From Candidatus Parcubacteria bacterium (lineage in GTDB: Bacteria > Patescibacteriota > Patescibacteriia > Patescibacteriales > BM507), in the NCBI GenBank assembly GCA_002869265.1, contig PKTH01000036.1, positions 168,525-232,524 on the forward strand: a DNA stretch of 64,000 nucleotides, in the 5' to 3' direction. The position numbers and the translations under genes are program-made. Below, piece by piece: positions 8,333-54,199 of the stretch (positions are counted from its first letter, which is position 1; each line of letters begins with the position of its first letter). Below the pieces are notes generated by a model that was given only the letters and a program-made list of their open reading frames with translations, had not been told where the DNA came from and made no database searches.

Positions 8333-9364
8333 TTAGACAGTTTTCTTTAGTTCTTTAATTATGTCAGAAATACCGCCGTCCATTATTTTTGGAATATTGC
8401 TCCAGTTTTTGCCTATCCTGTGGTCCGTGATTCTGTCTTGTGGGAAATTATAGGTACGTATTTTTTCACTTCTATCTCCTGAGCCAACTTGCTCTTTTCG
8501 GGCAGCTGCGTCTTCCCGAGCTTTATCTTCTTCAATTTTGGCAAACACCCTAGATCTAAGTACTTGCATCGCCTTTGCTTTGTTTTGTTGCTGTGATTTT
8601 TGATCCTGACAAGTCGCAACTACATTTAGGGGAAGGTAGGTGAGTCTAACCGCTGAATTAGAAGTGTTGACGCTTTGACCGCCAGGCCCAGAAGCTGAAT
8701 ATACATCAACCTTTAGATCGGCGTCTTTTATTTCGAAATCAACCTCTTCCGCTTCGGGTAATACAGCGACAGTTATTGCGGAGGTGTGTACTCGGCCTTG
8801 TTTTTCAGTCTCAGGGACTCTTTGTACTCGATGAGTGCCTCGTTCCCACTTAAGGTTTTTAAATACATCGCGGCCTTTTACAGAAAAAACTATTTCTTTG
8901 AAACCTCCTATGCCAATTGGGCTCGAGCTAATAATCTCTAATTTCCAGGAATTGTTTTCAGCGAAGCGTGAGTACATACGAAAAACTTCTGCTACAAATA
9001 GTGCAGATTCATCACCGCCTGTCCCAGCACGTATCTCTACGATAACGTCTTTCTTATCATTTGGATCTGCCGGATTTAGTTCCTCATAAATTTTCTTATT
9101 GAGCTTCTCAAATTCTTCTTCTAGATTGATGTTTTCTTCTTTGGCCATTTCAATCATTTCTTTGTCATTCTCTTTTGAGATTAGCTCTTTGTTATCGCTA
9201 ATCTGTTTTTCTATATCATTTGCACGATGAATCATCTCAACTAGATCTTTTAATTGAGCGTGTTCCTTTGAAACTTTTGAAAAATTATTAACATCTGAAA
9301 CTATTGTAGGGTCAGATAGCTTTTTTTCTAGTTCGTTAAATTTTTTGATTATATCTTCGTGCAT
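8333..9364 (-). CDS. prfA: Peptide chain release factor 1
   Basis: 343 aa. GGQ motif (SGPGGQSVNTS). RF1-type P-x-T tripeptide in RVQRVPETEKQGRVHTS. Confidence 0.95.
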   Translation of the reverse strand: MHEDIIKKFNELEKKLSDPTIVSDVNNFSKVSKEHAQLKDLVEMIHRANDIEKQISDNKELISKENDKEMIEMAKEENINLEEEFEKLNKKIYEELNPADPNDKKDVIVEIRAGTGGDESALFVAEVFRMYSRFAENNSWKLEIISSSPIGIGGFKEIVFSVKGRDVFKNLKWERGTHRVQRVPETEKQGRVHTSAITVAVLPEAEEVDFEIKDADLKVDVYSASGPGGQSVNTSNSAVRLTYLPLNVVATCQDQKSQQQNKAKAMQVLRSRVFAKIEEDKAREDAAARKEQVGSGDRSEKIRTYNFPQDRITDHRIGKNWSNIPKIMDGGISDIIKELKKTV

Positions 9365-9371
9365 ATATAAA

Positions 9372-9421
9372 ACGGCTATTTTTATTTATACTAAAAAATT
9401 AACATAAATAAAAATAGCCGT
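9372..9421 (-). terminator. Long AT-rich hairpin between rpmE and prfA
   Basis: Perfect 18-bp inverted repeat ACGGCTATTTTTATTTAT / ATAAATAAAAATAGCCGT with a 14-nt loop. Confidence 0.6.
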
Positions 9422-9428
9422 AAAATAT

Positions 9429-9713
9429 TTATTTCTCCTCCTCTTGTGCTTTGACTTCTGCTCTAGCTGCTCGTTTTACTTTTTTACCTTTTCTGACTTT
9501 TGCTGTCTCTTTTTGAGCATCTACTTTTGCTTTAAACTTCTCAACTCTTCTTGCTGTATCAACTAGCTTTTGCTTGCCAGTGTAGAATGGGTGGCAATTT
9601 GAGCAAAGTTCCGTTTTTGTTTCATCAACAGTAGAACCAGTTTCAATAACATTTCCACAAGCACAAACAACCTTTGCTTTCGTGTTGTAGTTTGGGTGAA
9701 TATCTTTTTTCAT
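9429..9713 (-). CDS. rpmE: Ribosomal protein L31 (Zn-ribbon type) with a Lys-rich C-terminal extension
   Basis: MKKDIHPNY.., CACG...[12 protein letters not shown]. Confidence 0.95.
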
Positions 9714-9843
9714 ATATTAACTAAAATTATAATAAATATAAAAACAAGCGTTCTTCACTTGTCCGCTAGAATATTAACATAAATAAAATATTATTGCAAG
9801 CATTAAAGCCAGCTAAAGACTAAGTTAAGTTGATTTTAGGGTA

Positions 9844-9872
9844 TTGACATATTTTGAATAATGTACTAATAT
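9844..9872 (+). promoter_or_regulatory. Sigma-70-type promoter of the sRNA candidate
   Basis: TTGACA (9844-9849), 17-nt spacer, TAATAT (9867-9872). Confidence 0.6.
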
Positions 9873-9878
9873 GATAGT

Positions 9879-9980
9879 CGCGATATAGATCATTATAAAC
9901 AAACACTTTTTGGACAGGCCGGCTGCCTGTCCCCTTAGCCCTAATCGACCTAACCCTCCTGGTCATTAGGGCTTTTTTTT
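9879..9980 (+). ncRNA. Candidate ~100-nt small RNA with a GC-rich hairpin and an intrinsic terminator whose loop carries CCCUCCU
   Basis: Lies between a consensus promoter and a T8 tract. Hairpin 1 is GGACAGGC-cggct-GCCTGTCC (9912-9932). Hairpin 2 is GCCCTAATCGACC-taaccctcct-GGTCATTAGGGC followed by TTTTTTTT (9938-9980). There is no ORF. The downstream gene has its own promoter (TTGGCG-18-TATAAT). 5' end estimated from the promoter. Confidence 0.5.
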
Positions 9981-35416: not shown

Positions 35417-36394
35417 ATGGAAAATACAGAAAATATTCATGATGTGAGTCCACACGAAAGAATTGAGGGGCACTCTGAAGAGATGCATATTGAGCATCAA
35501 GCAATTTTAGCCGAGACCATGAATACCGAAGACGCTGAGCATATAATAGATGAACATTCGGCTGTAGTCGAGCATGAAGGGGAGACACATGATTTAGTTC
35601 ATGAAAACACCTTGTTTGCAGAACCAATTGCCGAGGTTGCTGGATTACCGATAACAAACTCTTTGGTAAATACTTGGGTAGTTGTTTTGATAATTGTACT
35701 GCTTTCTTATTTTATCCGAAAAAATGTAAAAACCATACCAGGAAAAGTACAAAATGCATTTGAGATGATAGTAGAAGGTTTTTTAGGAATATTTGATTCT
35801 GTTACAGGTTCTAGAAAAGTTTCATTGAAATTTTTTCCTATGGTCTTTTCTTTTTTCTTGCTGATATTGATATATAATTGGATGGGCTTACTCCCTGGAG
35901 TAGGTTCTGTTGGACAGGTTCAAGTGCATGACGGACACAATATGTTTATCCCATATTTAAGAGGAGGAACCGCTGATATAAATACTACGCTTGCCTTGGC
36001 TCTTATTGGAGTTGTGGCTAGTCATATATTTGGAATATTGACTTTGGGTATGTGGAATCACCTAAATAAATTTGTGAACTTTAAAGCGTTTATGGAGATT
36101 CCTAAGAAAGTTAAGAAAGACTGGACTGTGTTGATTGTGAATCCTATTAAAGCATTCGTTGGTTTGATTGAAATCATCGGTGAGCTGGCTAAGGTGGCTA
36201 GTTTGACGTTCAGGCTTTTTGGTAATATTTTTGCTGGGGAAGTTCTCTTAGCATCAATGTCTGCCATTCTGGCCTTTGGCTTGCCAATCCCGTTTATGTT
36301 TATGGAAGTTTTAGTCGGACTTATCCAAGCGCTTATTTTCTCAATCCTGATTTTGTCATATTTATCAATGGCAACCAGCGCTGAGGAACATTAG
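35417..36394 (+). CDS. atpB: F0 ATP synthase subunit a with a His/Glu-rich N-terminal extension
   Basis: 325 aa. Essential-Arg motif LTFRLFGNIFAGE. First ~70 residues are rich in H, E and D. Confidence 0.93.
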   Translation: MENTENIHDVSPHERIEGHSEEMHIEHQAILAETMNTEDAEHIIDEHSAVVEHEGETHDLVHENTLFAEPIAEVAGLPITNSLVNTWVVVLIIVLLSYFIRKNVKTIPGKVQNAFEMIVEGFLGIFDSVTGSRKVSLKFFPMVFSFFLLILIYNWMGLLPGVGSVGQVQVHDGHNMFIPYLRGGTADINTTLALALIGVVASHIFGILTLGMWNHLNKFVNFKAFMEIPKKVKKDWTVLIVNPIKAFVGLIEIIGELAKVASLTFRLFGNIFAGEVLLASMSAILAFGLPIPFMFMEVLVGLIQALIFSILILSYLSMATSAEEH

Positions 36395-36427
36395 TATTTT
36401 GAATTTTATTAATATATAAATAACTAA

Positions 36428-36652
<225 letters not shown>

Positions 36653-36718
36653 TATTTTTGCTAACTGTTCCTTTCGTATTCGAAGGGGGCAGGAGTAAAA
36701 TTATTAAATTATACAAAT

Positions 36719-37216
36719 ATGGATTCATTAATAGAAATTTTTCACATTGACGCAAAACTTCTGATCGCTCAGATGATTAACTTCGCTATTGTTATTAGCG
36801 TATTATACTTTTTTGCTTTAAAACCTCTAATGAAAGTAATGGAAGAGCGAACAAAAAAGATAGAAAAAAGCATGGATGATGCTAAAAGAATAGAAGAAAA
36901 GTTAGAAAAAACAGATGCTGATTATAAAGAGGCTTTAGGAAATGCTAAAAAAGAAGCAAATGTAATAATGGAAAAAGCAACAGCTCAAGCAGAGGAAAAG
37001 AGAGAACAAATGATTAAAAAAGCCAAGGAAGATATTGGAGCTATTATTAATGACGAGAAAGCAAAGATGCAAGCAGAGAAGGCTGAGGTTTTAAGGGAAA
37101 TTAAAAAGGAGGTTGCTGGCATGGTTACAGCTTCTCTGGAGAAAGTTTTAGAAGAAAAAGTAGATGCTAAGGCCGACAAGGATTTAATTAAAAAAATAGT
37201 AGCTGAAAGTAAATAA
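36719..37216 (+). CDS. atpF: F0 ATP synthase subunit b
   Basis: 165 aa. N-terminal TM followed by a long K/E/A-rich helix. Operon position fits. Confidence 0.9.
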   Translation: MDSLIEIFHIDAKLLIAQMINFAIVISVLYFFALKPLMKVMEERTKKIEKSMDDAKRIEEKLEKTDADYKEALGNAKKEANVIMEKATAQAEEKREQMIKKAKEDIGAIINDEKAKMQAEKAEVLREIKKEVAGMVTASLEKVLEEKVDAKADKDLIKKIVAESK

Positions 37217-37217
37217 T

Positions 37218-37619
37218 ATGAAAGCAAGCTCAAAACAATATGCTGTCACTCTCTATGATTTAGTAGAGGGCAAGACTCAAAAAGAAATCTCCGACGTTTT
37301 GAAGAGCTTTTTTGAACTTTTGAAGAAAGACAATGTTTTGTCTAGACTTGATGACGTATTGAAGGAATTTAATGATATATGGAATAAGGAAAATGGAATA
37401 GTAGAAGCTTCAGTTGTATCTGCAAGAGAACTAGACAAGGCAAGTAAAAAGGAAATTGTTGATTATATAAAAACTGCCAGCAAAGCAGAAGATGTTGTTT
37501 TGGATGAAAGTGTTGATGAGAAAATTCTCGGCGGGGTTATTGTAAAATATGCAGACAAGATTGTAGATAGTAGTTTAAAAGGAAGAGTAAGTAGTTTAAA
37601 GCGTTCTTTAGAGAAATAA
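37218..37619 (+). CDS. atpH: F1 ATP synthase subunit delta (OSCP), unusually short
   Basis: 133 aa. C-terminal OSCP motif ILGGVIVKYADKIVDSSLKGRVSSLK. About 45 residues shorter than typical delta subunits. Confidence 0.8.
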   Translation: MKASSKQYAVTLYDLVEGKTQKEISDVLKSFFELLKKDNVLSRLDDVLKEFNDIWNKENGIVEASVVSARELDKASKKEIVDYIKTASKAEDVVLDESVDEKILGGVIVKYADKIVDSSLKGRVSSLKRSLEK

Positions 37620-37620
37620 A

Positions 37621-37646
37621 AAAGGCACCACTTTTGTGATGCCTTG
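37621..37646 (-). terminator. Hairpin with a U-tract only in the minus orientation
   Basis: AAGGCACCAC-tttt-GTGATGCCTT. The minus-strand reading is followed by TTTTTTATTT. The plus-strand reading is followed by GTAATG, with no T-run. Confidence 0.6.
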
Positions 37647-37654
37647 TAATGATG

Positions 37655-38089
37655 CTACATGAGTCTTTTCACGACAGTTGTTAGGTGAATGATTTCTTCA
37701 AGCATAAGGAATTCTTCATTGTTAAGCCTTGCGTGTAGATTAGTGATAAGTATTAAACGCTTATTAGTAGCGCAGGTTGGGCATTCTTCCTCGGGCATGG
37801 AGTTAGGGGCGGTATAGATGTTTTCTTTGTGAATGTTGCAGCCATTAAGAGGTCTAGTGCAATCCTGACAGACTGATTCTTTCCCAGACAGCTGGTCTAC
37901 TTGGCTCCTGAGAAAAAGAATCTCACCTAAATGAATCTTTTTCTGAGAGTCAAAATCTCGTGTAAAAAATTGGATTGCATCTTTTAACATGATTTCGGCA
38001 CATTTGAGACAAGGGATTTCCGGCATTTTACCCAAAGGGTAGTAGAGGTTATCATTGTGCTCAGGACAAGCGTCTATCTTCCTTCTCAT
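37655..38089 (-). CDS. Hypothetical Cys-rich protein with a duplicated C-x2-H-x15-C-x2-C module, antisense inside the atp locus
   Basis: Start set at ATG 38089, 5 nt after AGGAGG (complement of 38095-38100). The ORF-track TTG 38140 is less likely. Repeats are CPEHNDNLYYPLGKMPEIPCLKC and CNIHKENIYTAPNSMPEEECPTC. Confidence 0.65.
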   Translation of the reverse strand: MRRKIDACPEHNDNLYYPLGKMPEIPCLKCAEIMLKDAIQFFTRDFDSQKKIHLGEILFLRSQVDQLSGKESVCQDCTRPLNGCNIHKENIYTAPNSMPEEECPTCATNKRLILITNLHARLNNEEFLMLEEIIHLTTVVKRLM

Positions 38090-38291
38090 TTGGGCCTCCT
38101 GGATTTTGTTTGGAATTATTGTCAGTAGATTTTTTTCCAAAAAGACTTGGAAGAATTTTATCGATAAATTCTGAATAATCTCTTCGGGGTTTAACCAACG
38201 GTTTATGAAATTTCATAAATCACCTCAAATAAAAGTTTATAAAGAACAGCAATTAAATAAATATAGTAAAAATAATAATTTAAGTCAATAT

Positions 38292-39824
38292 ATGAGTAAA
38301 ACTAAGGATTTTATTGTCGAGCAGTTAAAAAAGCAAATTTCTGATTATAAGCTCTCTAGCCAAGAACAAACAGTTGGTCGGGTAGCGGAGATTGGTGATG
38401 GTATTGCTCGAATCACAGGCCTTTCTGACGTGATGATGTCAGAGATGCTTGAGTTTAACACCAAAGAAGGTGTTGTTAATGGTGTGGTTCTTAACCTGGA
38501 AGAAGATTCAGTTGGAGCTATTTTGCTAGGAGAGTATTCTGGTATTAAAGAAGGAGATGAAGTAAAAGCATTAAAAAGAATTTTAGAAGTTCCTGTTGGT
38601 GAAGCATTGGTAGGTAGAGTGGTAAACGCTCTAGGTCAACCAGTTGATGGAAAAGGAGAGATAAAAGAAGAAAAGTTCTACCCAATTGAAAAGATTGCCC
38701 CTGGCGTTATTACTCGTCAATCAGTGTTTGAGCCAGTACAAACTGGTATTAAGGCTATTGATTCTATGATTCCTGTTGGTCGTGGTCAACGTGAGTTGAT
38801 TATCGGAGATAGACAGATTGGTAAAACAGCTATTGCAGTTGATGCAATCATTAACCAAAAAGGACAAAACATGAAATGCGTTTATGTTGCAGTTGGTCAA
38901 AAAGAATCAAAGATTGCAAATATCGTTGCCAAATTAGAAGAAAATGGAGCAATGGAATACACAACAGTTGTTTTAGCTGGTGCTTCTGATCCTGCTTCAC
39001 TTTCATATATCGCCCCTTACTCAGGAACAGCAATCGCTGAATATTTCCTAGATAAAGGAGAAGATGTTTTGGTTGTTTATGATGATCTGTCTAAGCACGC
39101 TGTCGCCTATAGAGAAATCTCACTACTATTAAAGAGACCTCCGGGACGTGAGGCTTATCCTGGTGATGTTTTTTATCTTCACTCAAGACTTTTGGAAAGA
39201 TCATGTAAATTAAATAAAGACTTCGGCGGAGGATCTATTACCGCACTTCCTATTATTGAAACTCAAGCTGGAGATGTTTCTGCCTATATTCCAACCAATG
39301 TTATTTCTATTACAGATGGTCAGATTTACTTAGAAACAGATTTATTTAACCAAGGTAACAGACCGGCAGTAAACGCTGGTTTATCAGTATCTCGTGTTGG
39401 ATCAGCCGCACAAACAAAAGCGATGAAAAAAGTTGCCGGTAAAATGAGACTAGAGGCAGCTCAATACAGAGAGTTGGCTGCTTTTGCTCAATTCGGTTCA
39501 GATCTAGATGCTGAGACAAAAGCTAAGCTTGAAAGAGGAAAAAGAATTGTTGAAATCTTTAAGCAAGGTCAATATCAGCCGATCTCAATGGAAAAACAGG
39601 TTTCAATTTTCTATGCAGCGATTAATGGTTTACTTGATACAGTCCCTGTTGAAAAAATTGCAGAATTTGAATTGGGAATGTATAAGTATTTAGAAAATAA
39701 TTCTGATATCTATAAAAAGATTGCTGATAAAGGTGAATTGAGCGATGAATTAAACGCAGAAATTGAAAAAGTGGTCAATGACTACAAGGATACTCTTGAC
39801 TATATTACAAAAGAAGAAAAATAA
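38292..39824 (+). CDS. atpA: F1 ATP synthase subunit alpha
   Basis: Walker [12 protein letters not shown] 38292 gives 510 aa starting [13 protein letters not shown]. The ORF-track start 38205 adds a non-conserved 29 aa. Confidence 0.95.
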
Positions 39825-39826
39825 TT

Positions 39827-40786
39827 ATGGCGTCAATTAAAGACATCCAAAGAAGAATAAAATCAGTTAAAAATACTCGTAAAGTTACCAAGGCGATGGA
39901 AATGGTTGCGGCTGCCAAAATGAGAAAAGCAATAGAATCAGTATTGAAAACTAGAACTTATGCTAACCTAAGTTGGGAGACCATCTTGAATATTTCTAAA
40001 GCCGCTAATGGAGCTGCTGCTGGACATAAGCTTTTAGTAAAAAGAGACAAAGTAGAGAGAGTAGGAATAATTTTAATTACATCAAATAGAGGTTTGTGCG
40101 GTGGTTTTAATACAAACATTATCACTAAAGCTCATAAGTCTATTGAAATGCATCATAAGGATGGGAAAAAGGTGGAATTTGTCACAATTGGTAAAAAGGG
40201 GATTGGTGCTAAAAAGTACTATGGATATGATGTAGTGGCTGAATTCCCCAAGGAAGATATTATTACAGAGGTAAAAGAAGTTTATGATATCGCAAAGTTG
40301 GTTATTGACGACTATACAAGTGGTAAGTATGACAAGGTTATGGTTGCTTATACTGACTTTGTTAATGCCGCTACCCAAGAGCCTAGAGTAAAACAGCTTT
40401 TACCAGTTGATATAAATGCCGAAGATGAATATCTGGGAGTTGTTGGTTCTGATACTAGGGTAGGAACCACGAAAGAGATGATTGAAGAAAAGACAGAGAA
40501 GCACCTTAGCGATGAAAAATATGACCTTGATTATACTTTTGAACCAAGCCCAATGGAGGTATTGGATGAGATGATTCCAAGACTTATTGAGGTGCAGTTG
40601 TTTCAAGCATTGCTTGAATCAAATGCTTCAGAACACAGTGCCAGAATGACAGCTATGCACCAAGCAACTGATGCGGCTTCAGATATGATTTCAGAGTTAA
40701 CATTGTCATATAATAAAGCTAGACAAGAAAAGATTACGAATGAAATAGCAGAAATTACAGCAGGGGCTAATGCACTAAGTATGTAG
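39827..40786 (+). CDS. atpG: F1 ATP synthase subunit gamma
   Basis: 319 aa. N-terminus IKDIQRRIKSVKNTRKVTKAMEMVAAAKMRKA. C-terminus ITNEIAEITAGANAL. Confidence 0.95.
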   Translation: MASIKDIQRRIKSVKNTRKVTKAMEMVAAAKMRKAIESVLKTRTYANLSWETILNISKAANGAAAGHKLLVKRDKVERVGIILITSNRGLCGGFNTNIITKAHKSIEMHHKDGKKVEFVTIGKKGIGAKKYYGYDVVAEFPKEDIITEVKEVYDIAKLVIDDYTSGKYDKVMVAYTDFVNAATQEPRVKQLLPVDINAEDEYLGVVGSDTRVGTTKEMIEEKTEKHLSDEKYDLDYTFEPSPMEVLDEMIPRLIEVQLFQALLESNASEHSARMTAMHQATDAASDMISELTLSYNKARQEKITNEIAEITAGANALSM

Positions 40787-40816: not shown

Positions 40817-42205
<1,389 letters not shown>

Positions 42206-42223: not shown

Positions 42224-42655
42224 ATGAAATTAATAAAATTTGAAATAGTAACCCCGGAGAGAATGGTATTGCAAGAGCAGGTTCAACAGGTTGTAGCTCC
42301 TACAAAAGCCGGTGAAATTACTGTATTGCCTGGGCATATTCCTTTAGTGTCTTCATTGCAATCAGGAGTAATTGAGGTAAAAAACGAAAAAGGGGAGTAT
42401 GAGGTAATGAGTGTTTCCGGTGGCTTTTTAGAAGTTTTAAAGGACAAAGTTGTTGTTTTAGCTGACACAGCGGAGAGAGCAGAAGAGCTGGATGAGAAAA
42501 GGATAGAAGAGGCTAGAGCCAGAGCAGAAGAGTCCAAAAAAGATATTAGAACTTTTGATAGAGAGAGATTTGCTAGTATTAGCGCTAAAATGGCAAAAGA
42601 ACTAGCCAGATCTAAGGCAGCAAAGAGATGGAGAAAGTTAAAAAATATTGACTAA
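42224..42655 (+). CDS. atpC: F1 ATP synthase subunit epsilon
   Basis: 143 aa. Beta-sandwich N-terminus (FEIVTPERMV..), helical C-terminus. Operon position fits. Confidence 0.9.
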   Translation: MKLIKFEIVTPERMVLQEQVQQVVAPTKAGEITVLPGHIPLVSSLQSGVIEVKNEKGEYEVMSVSGGFLEVLKDKVVVLADTAERAEELDEKRIEEARARAEESKKDIRTFDRERFASISAKMAKELARSKAAKRWRKLKNID

Positions 42656-42679: not shown

Positions 42680-43102
42680 ATGTCACACACATGTAAATCT
42701 TTAGTTATCCATTGCATGGATTTTCGTTTAGTGGATCAAATAAGAGACTGGATGACGAAAGAAAAATTAATGAAAGACGCTGATGTGGTTTCTTTAGCAG
42801 GAGCTGCTAAAAATCTTGTAGATGGTAATGAAGAAGCTAAAAATGTGTTGTTGAAACAAATTGAAATAAGTAGTTCTTTACATAATTGTCTAAAAGTATA
42901 TTTAGTACATCATTCAACATGTGGAGCCTATGCGGTCTCCTATAATTTTGCTTCCTTGGAGGAAGAGAAAAAGAAGCAGTCTGAAGACCTAGATAAAGCA
43001 GTTGAAGTCATTAAAGAAAAATTTCCTAACCTGGAAGTTAGCAAAATCTGGGTTGAAATGAAAGACGGTGAAGGAAAAGAAGTGGAGATTATCGAGCTTT
43101 AA
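42680..43102 (+). CDS. Small beta-carbonic-anhydrase-like protein (motif-level assignment)
   Basis: 140 aa. IHCMDFR (CxDxR). VVSLAGAAKNL (compare VRNAGN). VYLVHHSTCGAY (HxxCG). Starts 24 nt after atpC with no terminator. Confidence 0.45.
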   Translation: MSHTCKSLVIHCMDFRLVDQIRDWMTKEKLMKDADVVSLAGAAKNLVDGNEEAKNVLLKQIEISSSLHNCLKVYLVHHSTCGAYAVSYNFASLEEEKKKQSEDLDKAVEVIKEKFPNLEVSKIWVEMKDGEGKEVEIIEL

Positions 43103-43131
43103 ACTCTTAAATAATAGACAGGAGGTAGAAA

Positions 43132-43890
43132 TTGGACTTTTCGATCAAGAAGAAGATGTGGGAGGTGTCAGAGGAGACTGACCTTTTAGTTGGAATAAGA
43201 GGTGGTGTTTTCTTGGAAGAAGTGCTTCGGTCAATCAGTGTTTTTTCCGAAGAGTGTTTCGGGAAAATGCCAAAAAAGATTAAGTGCATGGATGGCCGGC
43301 TGTTATATAATACAGAGCCATTTCTGGGGATTGCAGGGTCTGGGATACTCTTGGATTTCGAAGATCTTTACCGATTGCTCAAGACGCAAAGAAATAAAAG
43401 TGGCCTGATTATAGAAAGTCACGATTTTTGCGGTGCGTCCTTACTCGCCATGCAGCAAGAGGATCATTTTGTTGAAACCGAAGAACACGCCATGCAGTGG
43501 TACAAGTTTTTTTCGAAATTAATTGGGGCAAAACATGTTCACGTTGAAATGGAAAATTCTCTTCATGATGAGAGAGTTTTGATTCTTGACGGGACTGGGA
43601 GATTTAATGCTTATCCAGTTAGAAACTATTTGCCATCACACTTTTTGTGTAGCGGACCAAGTATCGGTTTATCAAACCTCTATTGTATGGCAGAAATCCA
43701 GACTGCAATAAATATTGTCAGTCACCACGGTTTTGGAAAAATGTTTAATGAAAACACAAATTTTTTCTATATACTGGTTTTTGCAGAGTCAGTGGAGCAG
43801 CTAGATGCCTTGTCGCACTTGGCTTACATGGCTTCGAAAGACACTCCTTGGGTAAAAGTACATGGAACCGTAATTCCGGACTTTGTTTAG
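43132..43890 (+). CDS. Second, larger beta-carbonic-anhydrase-like protein (motif-level assignment)
   Basis: 252 aa. KCMDGR (CxDxR). LGIAGSG. IIESHDFCGAS (HxxCG). TTG start 6 nt after AGGAGG (43120-43125). Confidence 0.4.
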   Translation: MDFSIKKKMWEVSEETDLLVGIRGGVFLEEVLRSISVFSEECFGKMPKKIKCMDGRLLYNTEPFLGIAGSGILLDFEDLYRLLKTQRNKSGLIIESHDFCGASLLAMQQEDHFVETEEHAMQWYKFFSKLIGAKHVHVEMENSLHDERVLILDGTGRFNAYPVRNYLPSHFLCSGPSIGLSNLYCMAEIQTAINIVSHHGFGKMFNENTNFFYILVFAESVEQLDALSHLAYMASKDTPWVKVHGTVIPDFV

Positions 43891-43902
43891 TTTAGGAAAA
43901 TT

Positions 43903-44232
43903 ATGGAGGTGCAATTGAAAGACGCAAGAAAAGTAGATGAGATTAGGACAACTGTTCTTAGTGAGACAACAGAACTTATAAAAGAACTGATTGAGTCAAA
44001 AGAGAACCAAGTATCAAGCGCAGTTAAATTCCTTGAATTAAAAGAAAGTAAGCCAGTGTCATTGGATGGGAAAGGGCAAAAAGATCACGCAGATATTGTT
44101 TTGGTGATGATGAGTCCACGATCAAAACTTTTAGATGTGGGTGTTTCTGATTCTATCCTTAAAAAATTGTTTAAAATTTTAGGTGACGACACAGAGCAGT
44201 CACAAAACGGCATTTTGGCCGTAGTTAGATAA
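43903..44232 (+). CDS. Hypothetical protein, last gene of the atpAGDC-extended operon
   Basis: 109-aa ORF. Followed by a strong terminator. Confidence 0.5.
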   Translation: MEVQLKDARKVDEIRTTVLSETTELIKELIESKENQVSSAVKFLELKESKPVSLDGKGQKDHADIVLVMMSPRSKLLDVGVSDSILKKLFKILGDDTEQSQNGILAVVR

Positions 44233-44240
44233 ATAAAACC

Positions 44241-44270
44241 AAGCCACCTAAAAAAGGTGGCTTTTTATTT
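44241..44270 (+). terminator. Intrinsic terminator
   Basis: AAGCCACC-taaaaaa-GGTGGCTT followed by TTTATTT. Confidence 0.8.
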
Positions 44271-44340
44271 ACAAAAAAATTACAAAATAGTATACTATAA
44301 GTAACTTAAAAGAACCTTAAAACTCGAAAGGAGATGAGTT

Positions 44341-44520
44341 ATGGCAATGATCGCATATGGCGCTCTTTCGCTCTTTGTTTCTTTTATACTGACCCTGTTT
44401 ATTTCATTTGCTGGTGAATACTCAGCGACTCAAATTATCTGTTTCTTCTGGGCCGCCTGTGGCCTTAGCTACATGCTGATCGCTTTTCTTTCCAAGGACG
44501 TTCAATATGAATCACCCTAA
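44341..44520 (+). CDS. Unannotated 59-aa 2-TM membrane protein
   Basis: Manual translation gives MAMIAYGALSLFVSFILTLFISFAGEYSATQIICFFWAACGLSYMLIAFLSKDVQYESP*. SD AAGGAGA lies 6 nt upstream. A terminator hairpin lies at 44539-44568. Confidence 0.6.
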   Translation: MAMIAYGALSLFVSFILTLFISFAGEYSATQIICFFWAACGLSYMLIAFLSKDVQYESP

Positions 44521-44627: not shown

Positions 44628-45116
44628 ATGTGGGTAAAAGATTACATGATCACCGATTATTTAACTGCTGGCAAAGATCTTACTATCTTGGAGGCTGTTA
44701 AGTTAATGGTTGAAAACAAAACAAATAGCTTGGTTGTTGTTGATGAAAACAAACATCCAATTGGGACACTTTCTTCCTATACATTGGTTAGAGAAGTTGT
44801 TCCAGCATATTTAAAGGATGATCCAATATTTTCAAACTTTGGAGCTGAAGGTACATTTGATAAATATGCTGAGAAAATGAAAGATCACAAGGTGGATGAT
44901 ATAATGCACAAAGATTTTCACACTCTAAGCGTAGATGACGCCATGATTGAAGCAGCATCTTATGCTATCAAAGCCTCAAGAAGAATAATGCCTGTTGTTG
45001 ATAAGGATGGATTGATGGTAGGGGTTGTCACAAGAACTTGTATAAAAAATGCTTTGTACAATACCTTATTTAAGGATGAACAAATTGACCCAGAAAATGG
45101 TGGTAATAATAAATAA
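44628..45116 (+). CDS. CBS-domain pair protein
   Basis: 162 aa with two CBS-like motifs (..VVDENKHPIGTLS.., ..PVVDKDGLMVGVVTR..). Confidence 0.8.
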   Translation: MWVKDYMITDYLTAGKDLTILEAVKLMVENKTNSLVVVDENKHPIGTLSSYTLVREVVPAYLKDDPIFSNFGAEGTFDKYAEKMKDHKVDDIMHKDFHTLSVDDAMIEAASYAIKASRRIMPVVDKDGLMVGVVTRTCIKNALYNTLFKDEQIDPENGGNNK

Positions 45117-45189
45117 TTTTTTTAGTATAGAAATAATTTAAATAAGAATAAAAAACTAATTACTTGGTTTTTTATTTTTTTTCAAAAAT

Positions 45190-46521
45190 ATGCACGAAGA
45201 ATTAGTCGGCGTCGCCGCAAATCATATAACTAGTGGAGCAGTTACCGCCGCATTGCTTATCTTTTTGGCTAGTTATGGAGCAATTATATCAGAAAAAATC
45301 CACAGAACAATTGTTGCAATATTTGGTGGAGCTTTAATGATTGTAGTTGGAATATTTATGCATTTTTATTCTCAAGAAGCGGCGATTGAGTCAATTGATT
45401 TCAATACAATCGGCCTTCTTGTCGGAATGATGATTATAGTGGGGGTTACTAAGGACACGGGACTTTTTCAGTATGTGGCAATTAAATCTGCTAAGATTGC
45501 CAAAGGAAATCCGTGGAAAATATTGATAATGTTCTCGGTTATTACAGCTCTTTTTTCTGCCCTACTTGATAATGTAACAACAGTTATGTTAATGGTTCCA
45601 ATGACCTTAGTTATTGCTGATAACCTTCGAATAAATCCCATGCCCTTTCTTTTTGTTGAGATTTTTATGAGCAATGTCGGCGGAACTGCTACATTGATTG
45701 GTGATCCACCAAATATTTTGATTGGTTCAGCAGCAGGTCTTTCATTTATGGATTTTGTTGTAAATCTGACTCCTGTGGTTATTGTAATGTTTATTGTTCT
45801 AATGCCATTGGTTAAGTTCTTTTATAAAAAACAGATAGAGACAAGCAAAGAAAACATGGAAAGAGTGATGCAACTCAATGAAAGAGATGGTATCCAAGAT
45901 GCGCTTTTATTGAAAAAATCATTGATTGTTTTAGCAATTGTTATTACTGGTTTTTTCTTACACGGTTGGCTTCATATGGAAGGTGCTACTATCGCTATTT
46001 TTGGAGCAGGTTTACTGCTTTTACTCGATAAAAAGAATCCAGAAAAAGCTTTACATGAAGTTGAGTGGATTACAATCTTCTTTTTTATCGGTTTGTTTGT
46101 AATTATTGGTGGACTTGAACATGTTGGTGTAATCGCCTGGGCTGCCGATAAGATGATTGAGCTTACTCAAGGAAGTCTCGCAATTACAGCGATGGTGATG
46201 CTTTGGGGTGGAGCTATATTCTCTGCCTTTGTTGACAATATACCTTTTGTGGCCACTATGATACCAATGGTTCAGGAGATGGGTCACACTACCTTTACTG
46301 ACCCAACAGAGCTAAATACAATTTGGTGGTCTCTAGCCCTAGGTGCTTGTTTGGGTGGAAATGGTACATTGGTAGGAGCTTCAGCAAACTTAGTAGTAGC
46401 TGGGATGGCAGAGAAGTCAGGATATAAGATTGGTTTTGTAGACTTTATGAAAATGGGGCTTTTAATAATGTTTGTAACAGTAGCTATTTCAACTGTATAT
46501 ATATACATGAGATATCTATAA
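45190..46521 (+). CDS. ArsB/NhaD-superfamily (CitMHS-like) ion permease
   Basis: 443 aa polytopic. LLDNVTTVMLMVP and FVDNIPFVATMIP duplicated hairpin motifs. Confidence 0.7.
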   Translation: MHEELVGVAANHITSGAVTAALLIFLASYGAIISEKIHRTIVAIFGGALMIVVGIFMHFYSQEAAIESIDFNTIGLLVGMMIIVGVTKDTGLFQYVAIKSAKIAKGNPWKILIMFSVITALFSALLDNVTTVMLMVPMTLVIADNLRINPMPFLFVEIFMSNVGGTATLIGDPPNILIGSAAGLSFMDFVVNLTPVVIVMFIVLMPLVKFFYKKQIETSKENMERVMQLNERDGIQDALLLKKSLIVLAIVITGFFLHGWLHMEGATIAIFGAGLLLLLDKKNPEKALHEVEWITIFFFIGLFVIIGGLEHVGVIAWAADKMIELTQGSLAITAMVMLWGGAIFSAFVDNIPFVATMIPMVQEMGHTTFTDPTELNTIWWSLALGACLGGNGTLVGASANLVVAGMAEKSGYKIGFVDFMKMGLLIMFVTVAISTVYIYMRYL

Positions 46522-54115: not shown

Positions 54116-54199
54116 TGCCCAGGGAGGGAATCGAACCCTCACTCTATTGCTAGAACGGGATTTTGAGTCCCGCGTGTCTACCAGTTTCACCACCTGGGC
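54116..54199 (-). tRNA. tRNA-Leu (anticodon CAA), class II with a long variable arm; CCA not encoded
   Basis: Reverse complement is GCCCAGG-UG-GUGAAACUGGUAGACAC-G-CGGGA-CUCAAAA-UCCCG-UUCUAGCAAUAGAGU-GAGGG-UUCGAUU-CCCUC-CCUGGGC-A. All four stems pair. Confidence 0.92.

Follow-up and report, generated by a model that had tools for sequence, protein, structure and literature searches.

Two divergent beta-carbonic-anhydrase-like genes behind atpC in a Candidatus Parcubacteria genome and their counterparts in related bacteria

Patescibacteria (candidate phyla radiation, CPR) live with a minimal metabolism that is for the most part fermentative, and what their ATP synthase does is a matter of debate. 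A locus in a Candidatus Parcubacteria metagenome-assembled genome (MAG) raises the question why genes resembling those of carbonic anhydrases (CAs) stand behind the F1 genes of this enzyme and what their products might contribute. The locus lies in a stretch of 64,000 nucleotides, referred to as the window (GenBank assembly GCA_002869265.1, contig PKTH01000036.1, positions 168,525 to 232,524 of the forward strand; locus tags C0584_04580 and C0584_04585), in which three open reading frames (ORFs) follow atpC. The answer that we favour, tentatively and with confidence just short of even, is that ORF1 and ORF2 both belong to the beta-CA superfamily as very divergent proteins with a Cys-His-Cys site and an Asp(-Arg) dyad, that they form the tail of the atpAGDC message together with ORF3, and that they are most likely CAs. 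The three ORFs, with positions counted from the first letter of the window, are:

42680-43102, + strand: ORF1, 140 aa, Pfam PF20393 (Pro_CA_2)
43120-43125, + strand: AGGAGG Shine-Dalgarno sequence of ORF2, 6 nt before the TTG start
43132-43890, + strand: ORF2, 252 aa, TTG start at 43132, of a family that has no model in Pfam or NCBIfam
43903-44232, + strand: ORF3, 109 aa, a putative lineage-specific orphan

Two divergent, probable members of the beta-CA superfamily

Both ORF1 and ORF2 contain the zinc-ligand pattern of the beta class, a Cys on strand beta1 and a His-x-x-Cys on strand beta3, together with the Asp-Arg dyad (C-x-D-x-R). The initial annotation had recognised two divergent beta-CA-like genes from short peptides, all of which are present in the two + strand ORFs (VIHCMDFR, VVSLAGAAKN and VHHSTCGA in ORF1; KCMDGR, LGIAGSG and ESHDFCGA in ORF2), and this recognition is borne out by the profile comparisons. 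ORF1 matches the Pfam family PF20393 (Pro_CA_2, "putative carbonic anhydrase") with 74.5 bits and an E-value of 1.1e-20, the gathering cutoff being 30, and the alignment covers positions 3-117 of the 125 positions of the model. Its 45 homologues all come from MAGs of the Patescibacteria type, and some of them are named 'carbonic anhydrase' by NCBI, JGI or UniRef. Invariant among them are Asp14, Phe15, Arg16, Ala40, Gly41, Lys44, His68 and the segment His78-x-x-Cys81-Gly-Ala-Tyr, and Cys12 is found in all full-length homologues; Cys12, His78 and Cys81 are the predicted zinc ligands and Asp14-Arg16 the predicted dyad. The profile of the ORF1 family matches the solved beta-CAs 1ylk (1.4e-4), 3las, 6jqd and 1g5c in the PDB, and also carbonyl sulfide (COS) and carbon disulfide (CS2) hydrolases, and the family aligns with E. 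coli Can in register at Cys42/Asp44/Arg46 and His98/Cys101. The best of these PDB profile matches are small Cab-type beta-CAs (M. thermautotrophicus Cab, 1g5c; M. tuberculosis Rv1284, 1ylk), which share with the window proteins the Cys-x-Asp-x-Arg and His-x-x-Cys-Gly pattern and a strand running into each ligand. They differ in that their chains have 164-172 aa compared with the 140 aa of ORF1, which stays under the PF00484 threshold, in that both the ORF1 and the ORF2 family have invariant residues of their own, and in that ORF2 is extended at both ends, by a helical segment at the N-terminus and by a domain of about 90 aa at the C-terminus.

In the public annotation ORF1 has 128 aa and starts at Met13 within CMDFR, which drops Cys12, and several homologues with calls of 127-128 aa likewise start at this Met and lack the first predicted zinc ligand. 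An upstream ATG with a Shine-Dalgarno sequence, which restores MSHxCK..HCMDFR, is conserved in two related loci (window 42680-42715; L001 and L004, 7965-8000; related loci and contigs are cited by L and P numbers), and the 140-aa form is therefore taken as the correct one. Neither ORF1 nor ORF2 found a match in the PDB by phmmer, PDB searches returned no solved structure for the Pro_CA_2 family, and no paper in the searchable literature mentions PF20393. Judged from its sequence, ORF1 is a minimal beta-CA-like protein of a family that is known but uncharacterised and widespread in Patescibacteria.

ORF2 has no match in Pfam or NCBIfam, including PF20393, so that only ORF1 is a member of Pro_CA_2, and BLASTP of ORF1 against ORF2 gave no match. 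The divergence of ORF2 from its relatives exceeds that of ORF1 by far, with 33% identity to its counterpart in the related locus L002 compared with 59% for ORF1. A word-index homology search found ORF2 itself only, or 8 proteins only when the family alignment was used, while an exhaustive HMMER search recovered 191 family representatives (clusters at 50% identity) at E<=1e-3, mostly of 245-290 aa. When 61 members were compared with Pfam, none matched a family, the commonest weak match being Pro_CA (3 of 61, best E 0.035). Among 150 sequences of the family Cys52 is retained in 144 of 144, Asp54 in 145 of 146, His97 in 147 of 147, Cys100 in 147 of 147 and His145 in 146 of 148 of the aligned residues; Ala68-Gly69, Gly101-Ala102 and His199-Gly200 are near-invariant. 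The protein is laid out as follows:

Residues 1-45: N-terminal helical segment
Residues ~46-160: beta-CA-like core (Cys52, Asp54, Arg56, His97, Cys100)
C-terminal part: alpha/beta extension; conserved in ORF2 are His145 and His199-Gly-Phe-Gly

Comparison of alignments by hhalign places this core next to Pro_CA_2, since the N-terminal half of the ORF2 family (residues 44-135) aligns with the Pro_CA_2 alignment at a probability of 89.7% (E 1.8e-6) and pairs C52 with C12, D54 with D14, R56 with R16, AG68-69 with AG40-41, H97 with H78 and C100 with C81, while the controls (C-terminal half, reversed alignment, 20 column shuffles) reached at most 0.5%. The ORF2 family likewise aligns with CsoSCA-like proteins, i.e., relatives of the carboxysome shell CA (CsoSCA; PF20686; PDB 2fgy), at 91.7% (E 7.7e-7), at 50.6% in the other direction and at no more than 0.3% in the controls. 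On the strength of these alignments the ORF2 core appears related to both groups, and ORF2 is best described as a predicted beta-CA superfamily member with an extra C-terminal domain. CsoSCA consists of a helical N-terminus, a catalytic core and an extra C-terminal domain, a layout that ORF2 resembles in miniature, and CsoSCA-like genes share the KCMDGR motif with ORF2; however, ORF2 has H-x2-C in place of the long His...Cys spacing, is half the size and does not match PF20686. The C-terminal half of the family has no detectable similarity to either Pro_CA_2 or the CsoSCA-like proteins, and an internal duplication, tried by aligning the two halves of ORF2, was rejected (probability 0.5%). In searches of the PDB with the family profile, four of the five best matches are proteins of the beta-CA class, with E-values of 0.05-0.55.

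AlphaFold gave a pLDDT of 34 from the single sequence, and the model used here was built with the 61-sequence family alignment (pLDDT 94.9, pTM 0.92). It shows four N-terminal helices, a beta-alpha core and a C-terminal beta-alpha-beta-alpha-beta extension, and the strands 49-51 and 93-97 run into Cys52 and His97, as in beta-CAs. Of 2826 ORFs with a length of 100 aa or more, taken from 85 related loci and the window, 96 contain the motif pattern C.D.[RG]-x20-95-H(x2 or x8-10)C[GA][GA]; 93 of the 96 are Pro_CA_2 or ORF2-family proteins, three are CsoSCA-like and none is unrelated, which argues that the motif is not a product of chance.

Gene order behind atpC in the window and in other genomes

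The genes upstream of ORF1 and the signals downstream of ORF3 are:

38205-39824, + strand: atpA (F1 alpha), from the ORF list, phmmer against related loci and Pfam on homologous loci
39827-40786, + strand: atpG (F1 gamma), from the ORF list and phmmer against related loci
40829-42205, + strand: atpD (F1 beta), from the ORF list and phmmer against related loci
42224-42655, + strand: atpC (F1 epsilon), from the ORF list and phmmer; homologues carry PF02823
44241-44263, both strands: bidirectional intrinsic terminator, predicted to close the atpAGDC-ORF1-ORF2-ORF3 unit
44268-44296, + strand: promoter-like site TTTACA-17-TATACT for the next gene, a consensus match alone that marks the unit boundary

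All genes from atpA to ORF3 lie on the same strand, with short gaps (24 nt between atpC and ORF1, 29 nt between ORF1 and ORF2, 12 nt between ORF2 and ORF3), with no terminator or promoter between them and with a terminator after the last gene, an arrangement like that of an operon. The three junctions in this order fold with -0.8, -3.6 and -0.3 kcal/mol, not better than shuffled sequences, compared with -14.3 kcal/mol and a z-score of -4.7 for the hairpin at 44241-44263, which is followed by the U run UUUUUAUUU. A terminator scan of the + strand from the atpC stop (42655) to 44241 found no terminator, its sole match being a weak 5-bp hairpin inside ORF2 (43167-43182). An internal promoter of ORF1 to ORF3 was rejected, since the sole candidates agree with the consensus at 9 of 12 positions and lie inside ORF2, and the promoter-like sites of this stretch come close to the chance expectation (44 compared with 37.8). 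From its sequence, atpAGDC with ORF1 to ORF3 looks like one transcription unit. The initial annotation had anticipated this anatomy, i.e., the run without a terminator from atpC to 44241 and the strong Shine-Dalgarno sequence and TTG start of ORF2's own, and scan, folds and coordinates agree with it. It had also called the last gene an orphan, which fits as well: ORF3 matched nothing in Pfam or NCBIfam, and no relative was found in the 85 related loci, even where synteny is closest, or in a metagenome scan, and it is read here as a putative gene confined to its lineage. The metagenome scans gave nothing new beyond the other searches, and an Rfam search found no non-coding RNA in the region.

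The position behind atpC recurs in other genomes, as the initial annotation had asked to be examined. When each GTDB species was represented by one genome, a scan yielded 80 Pro_CA_2 loci, essentially all from Patescibacteria, of which 25 have atpC on the same strand no more than 3 kb upstream; among the 64 loci whose upstream sequence extends to 3 kb or more the number is 24. In roughly half of the 25 the two genes are direct neighbours, and the atp-linked loci are scattered over at least four separate parts of the protein neighbour-joining tree, with downstream neighbours that vary between a UvrD-type nuclease, Cpn10/Cpn60, TsaD/LeuRS and a CBS protein with a CitMHS permease. In four loci a Na+/H+ exchanger gene (PF00999) stands between atpC and Pro_CA_2 (L009, ~8500-9980; L039; L046, 8439-9971; L068). 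A fifth locus, L025, has the exchanger directly upstream of Pro_CA_2 with a flank too short to show an atp operon. ORF2-family genes stand behind atpC in 7 of the 12 contexts sampled; in four of these they follow atpC-Pro_CA_2 (the window, L002, L004 and the P0069 contig), and in three they come directly after atpC with no Pro_CA_2 between (P0049, P0048 and P0061), P0061 having a complete atpBEFHAGDC cluster followed by the ORF2-family gene after 34 nt.

Pro_CA_2 genes linked to atp often adjoin a second divergent CA-like gene, of which four types were found:

ORF2-family gene: window clade
CsoSCA-like gene, 348-386 aa: L039 (10485-11573), L055 (1037-2080) and L065 (2093-3250)
Pro_CA_2 paralogue: L006, L085 and L046
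Double-domain protein with a degenerate first repeat: L052 and L081

The CsoSCA-like genes, which hold the same slot beside the atp-linked Pro_CA_2 gene as ORF2, encode the motif KCMDGR...YHWSKG..GCGG; PF20686 recognises the L039 and L055 proteins above its cutoff (E 5e-6 and 3e-5) and the L065 protein under it (18.3 bits), and the L039 protein matches PDB 2fgy with 3.6e-4. No carboxysome genes were found in the flanks examined. The place behind atpC-Pro_CA_2 is evidently a dynamic one. Proteins of about 290 aa with two Pro_CA_2-like repeats (L052 9033-9911, L081 2445-3320, L058 8965-9909) are reminiscent of pseudo-dimeric CAs; their first repeat is devoid of the Cys/His/Cys ligands, and their gene lies immediately upstream of a normal Pro_CA_2 gene. 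In the cultured Minisyncoccus archaeiphilus PMX.108 two tandem Pro_CA_2 genes (L067 9971-10881; NZ_AP038758.1 ~1,250,372-1,251,282) are arranged as GH3 - CA - CA - LepA and not with atp. Non-subunit genes that are co-transcribed with atp structural genes are known from atpI and, in Bacillus, atpZ; these stand upstream and encode small membrane proteins, whereas the genes described here lie downstream of atpC, their co-transcription is suggested by sequence, and their products resemble soluble zinc enzymes. Searches of the searchable literature gave no relevant report of the conserved slot behind atpC, of CA genes in atp operons or of a CA in CPR/Patescibacteria.

Surroundings of the unit

The remaining atp genes and an ORF of opposite orientation precede the unit:

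35417-37619, + strand: atpB, atpE, atpF and atpH
37622-38140, - strand: Cys-rich ORF of 161 aa with several CxxC-type pairs

The 161-aa ORF, which has no match in Pfam and its own minus-strand terminator (37645-37622), separates atpH from atpA and divides the cluster into atpBEFH and atpAGDC-ORF1-3; related loci have no insert at this position or a different small ORF (L002, L101). The longest ORF of atpA has 539 aa compared with 504-510 aa in homologues, so its true start is probably about 29 codons further downstream. Subunit a (atpB) has 325 aa here and 276-318 aa in related loci, with an N-terminal extension of about 70 aa (35417-35630) in which His, Glu and Asp are very abundant (MENTENIHDVSPHERIEGHSEEMHIEHQ...). 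The c subunit (36440-36652) has neither the Gln nor the Ser/Thr of the Na+-binding signature, which we take to suggest H+ coupling. A conserved gene pair, for a CBS-pair protein and a CitMHS/ArsB-type permease, follows closely after the CA-like genes in the window (44628-46521), in L002 (9415-11685) and in L006 (11074-13090); the pair in the window sits behind promoter-like sites and terminators of its own. A tRNA gene (54116-54199, - strand) was the sole Rfam match over the whole window.

Possible roles of the CA-like proteins

As predicted cytoplasmic zinc proteins, ORF1 and ORF2 would most likely catalyse CO2 + H2O <-> HCO3- + H+, and neither N-terminus resembles a signal peptide or a membrane segment. 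Beta-CAs are obligately dimeric, their active sites being formed where the subunits meet. Since CA-like genes also recur in pairs behind atpC, ORF1 and ORF2 may form a hetero-oligomer. In a fermentative cell the H+-ATPase probably serves mainly for the export of protons, and a CA activity produced along with the F1 genes would be coupled to the way in which such a cell manages protons and pH. The recurring partners of Pro_CA_2, namely the ATPase, the Na+/H+ exchanger and lower glycolysis, share a theme of protons, pH and energy.

Several observations weigh against this reading, and a first group of them concerns genome position. In about 16 species Pro_CA_2 belongs to a lower-glycolysis cluster with the order GAPDH - Pro_CA_2 - PGK - small Ig-like ORF - enolase (L012-L015, L018, L023, L026, L028-L030, L033, L035, L037, L038, L045, L073), about 15 further loci have it between HlyIII and LepA, and it also occurs in a GH3/ParB context; these glycolytic and other contexts make the ATPase link suggestive and not proven. 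An ORF2-family gene within 10 kb is missing from all of the 80 GTDB loci, which marks the exact combination seen in the window as rare, and 5 of the 12 ORF2-family contexts, those of the more distant members, are unrelated to atp. The GC content at third codon positions (GC3) of ORF2 is 0.43 compared with 0.22-0.32 for the atp genes, ORF1, ORF3 and the CBS gene, and thus ORF2 may be a recent acquisition. The 59-aa membrane-like ORF that comes next (44341-44520) is likewise atypical (GC3 0.45).

The serious rival that builds on these positions accepts the proteins as real CAs and regards the slot behind atpC as meaningless, a case of neutral packing in small, compacted genomes, where housekeeping genes fill the space between conserved operons (atp, groESL, glycolysis) and the CA genes would be transcribed by read-through from upstream. 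At least four conserved contexts of Pro_CA_2 (atp, gap-pgk-eno, HlyIII/LepA, GH3/ParB), the frequent presence of Cpn10/Cpn60 just downstream and the absence of atp linkage in distant ORF2-family members are what such packing would leave behind. It has more difficulty with the junction of atpC and the CA-like gene, which is kept in several clades although the downstream neighbour changes (UvrD-type nuclease, GroESL, TsaD/LeuRS, CBS and permease), and with two distantly related CA-like families that both take the slot immediately 3' of atpC; moreover, ATP-yielding modules make up two of the contexts, and between atpC and the CA gene an inserted Na+/H+ exchanger is met repeatedly. On balance we regard neutral packing as somewhat unlikely, though well worth reckoning with.

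A second group of contrary observations comes from the proteins themselves. The check with the canonical Pro_CA model (PF00484) proposed by the initial annotation gave a weak match at best, ORF1 scoring 15.6 bits (E 0.02) under the gathering cutoff of 25.7 and ORF2 having no match. ORF1 is, as that annotation had remarked, shorter than canonical beta-CAs, its 140 aa lying below every solved beta-CA found (matched PDB chains of 164-219 aa). The dyad residue Arg56 is Arg in 110 of 146 ORF2-family sequences and Gly in 35, and a Foldseek search of the ORF2 model against the PDB found no neighbour and did not recover the beta-CA fold. The proteins could have kept the zinc scaffold of beta-CAs for another role, either on a different small substrate, as in the COS and CS2 hydrolases that both family profiles also match, or as non-catalytic zinc proteins that assemble, regulate or dock on F1Fo. 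The small size of ORF1, the missing dyad Arg in a quarter of the ORF2 family, the lack of a close structural neighbour for the ORF2 model and invariant residues that canonical CAs do not have (Lys44, His68 and Tyr84 in Pro_CA_2; His145 and His199-Gly in the ORF2 family) would suit such a role, but no observation favours a particular other substrate or a contact with an ATPase subunit, and both window proteins retain the full Cys, Asp, Arg, His, Cys set for CA chemistry, which leaves this explanation doubtful. That ORF2 is not homologous to beta-CAs at all, its C-x-D-x-R and H-x-x-C-G-A motifs having arisen by convergence or coincidence on an unrelated alpha/beta fold, is very improbable: the absent Pfam/NCBIfam match, the empty BLASTP comparison with ORF1, the Foldseek search without a beta-CA and the PDB profile E-values of 0.05-0.55 are outweighed by profile-profile alignments with two independent groups of the beta-CA superfamily that score far higher than the reversed and shuffled controls, by an alignment in correct register including the Ala-Gly of beta2, by the same order of secondary structure around the motifs as in beta-CAs and by a gene that adjoins a Pro_CA_2 gene in the genome.

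The preferred reading of ORF1 and ORF2 as divergent CAs has an extended form, in which a conserved CA-like module, consisting of Pro_CA_2 and a variable beta-CA-superfamily partner such as the ORF2 family, is a functional accessory of the F1Fo ATPase of Patescibacteria. This extension seems to us unlikely as things stand; the module would be a cytoplasmic converter of CO2, HCO3- and H+ or a zinc-dependent regulator, co-expressed with the ATPase and perhaps bound to it, that manages pumped protons, and ORF2 would then define a new structural subclass of beta-CA. The cautious interpretation of the initial annotation, which had proposed either a link of bicarbonate or pH handling to the ATPase or an offshoot of the fold with another function, is supported.

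If the ATPase link is incidental, the outcome is a modest improvement of annotation. The analysis describes a protein family, with about 190 clusters, for which neither Pfam nor NCBIfam has a model and in which Cys/His/Cys is kept; its confident predicted structure has no PDB neighbour in Foldseek. The analysis also reveals CsoSCA-like proteins outside a carboxysome context, and it indicates that gene callers routinely shorten Pro_CA_2 proteins and thereby lose the first predicted metal ligand. For the biology of Patescibacteria, the CA-like gene that recurs on the 3' side of the atp operon, in some loci after an intervening Na+/H+ exchanger gene, is a testable lead on how these cells may handle protons and inorganic carbon.

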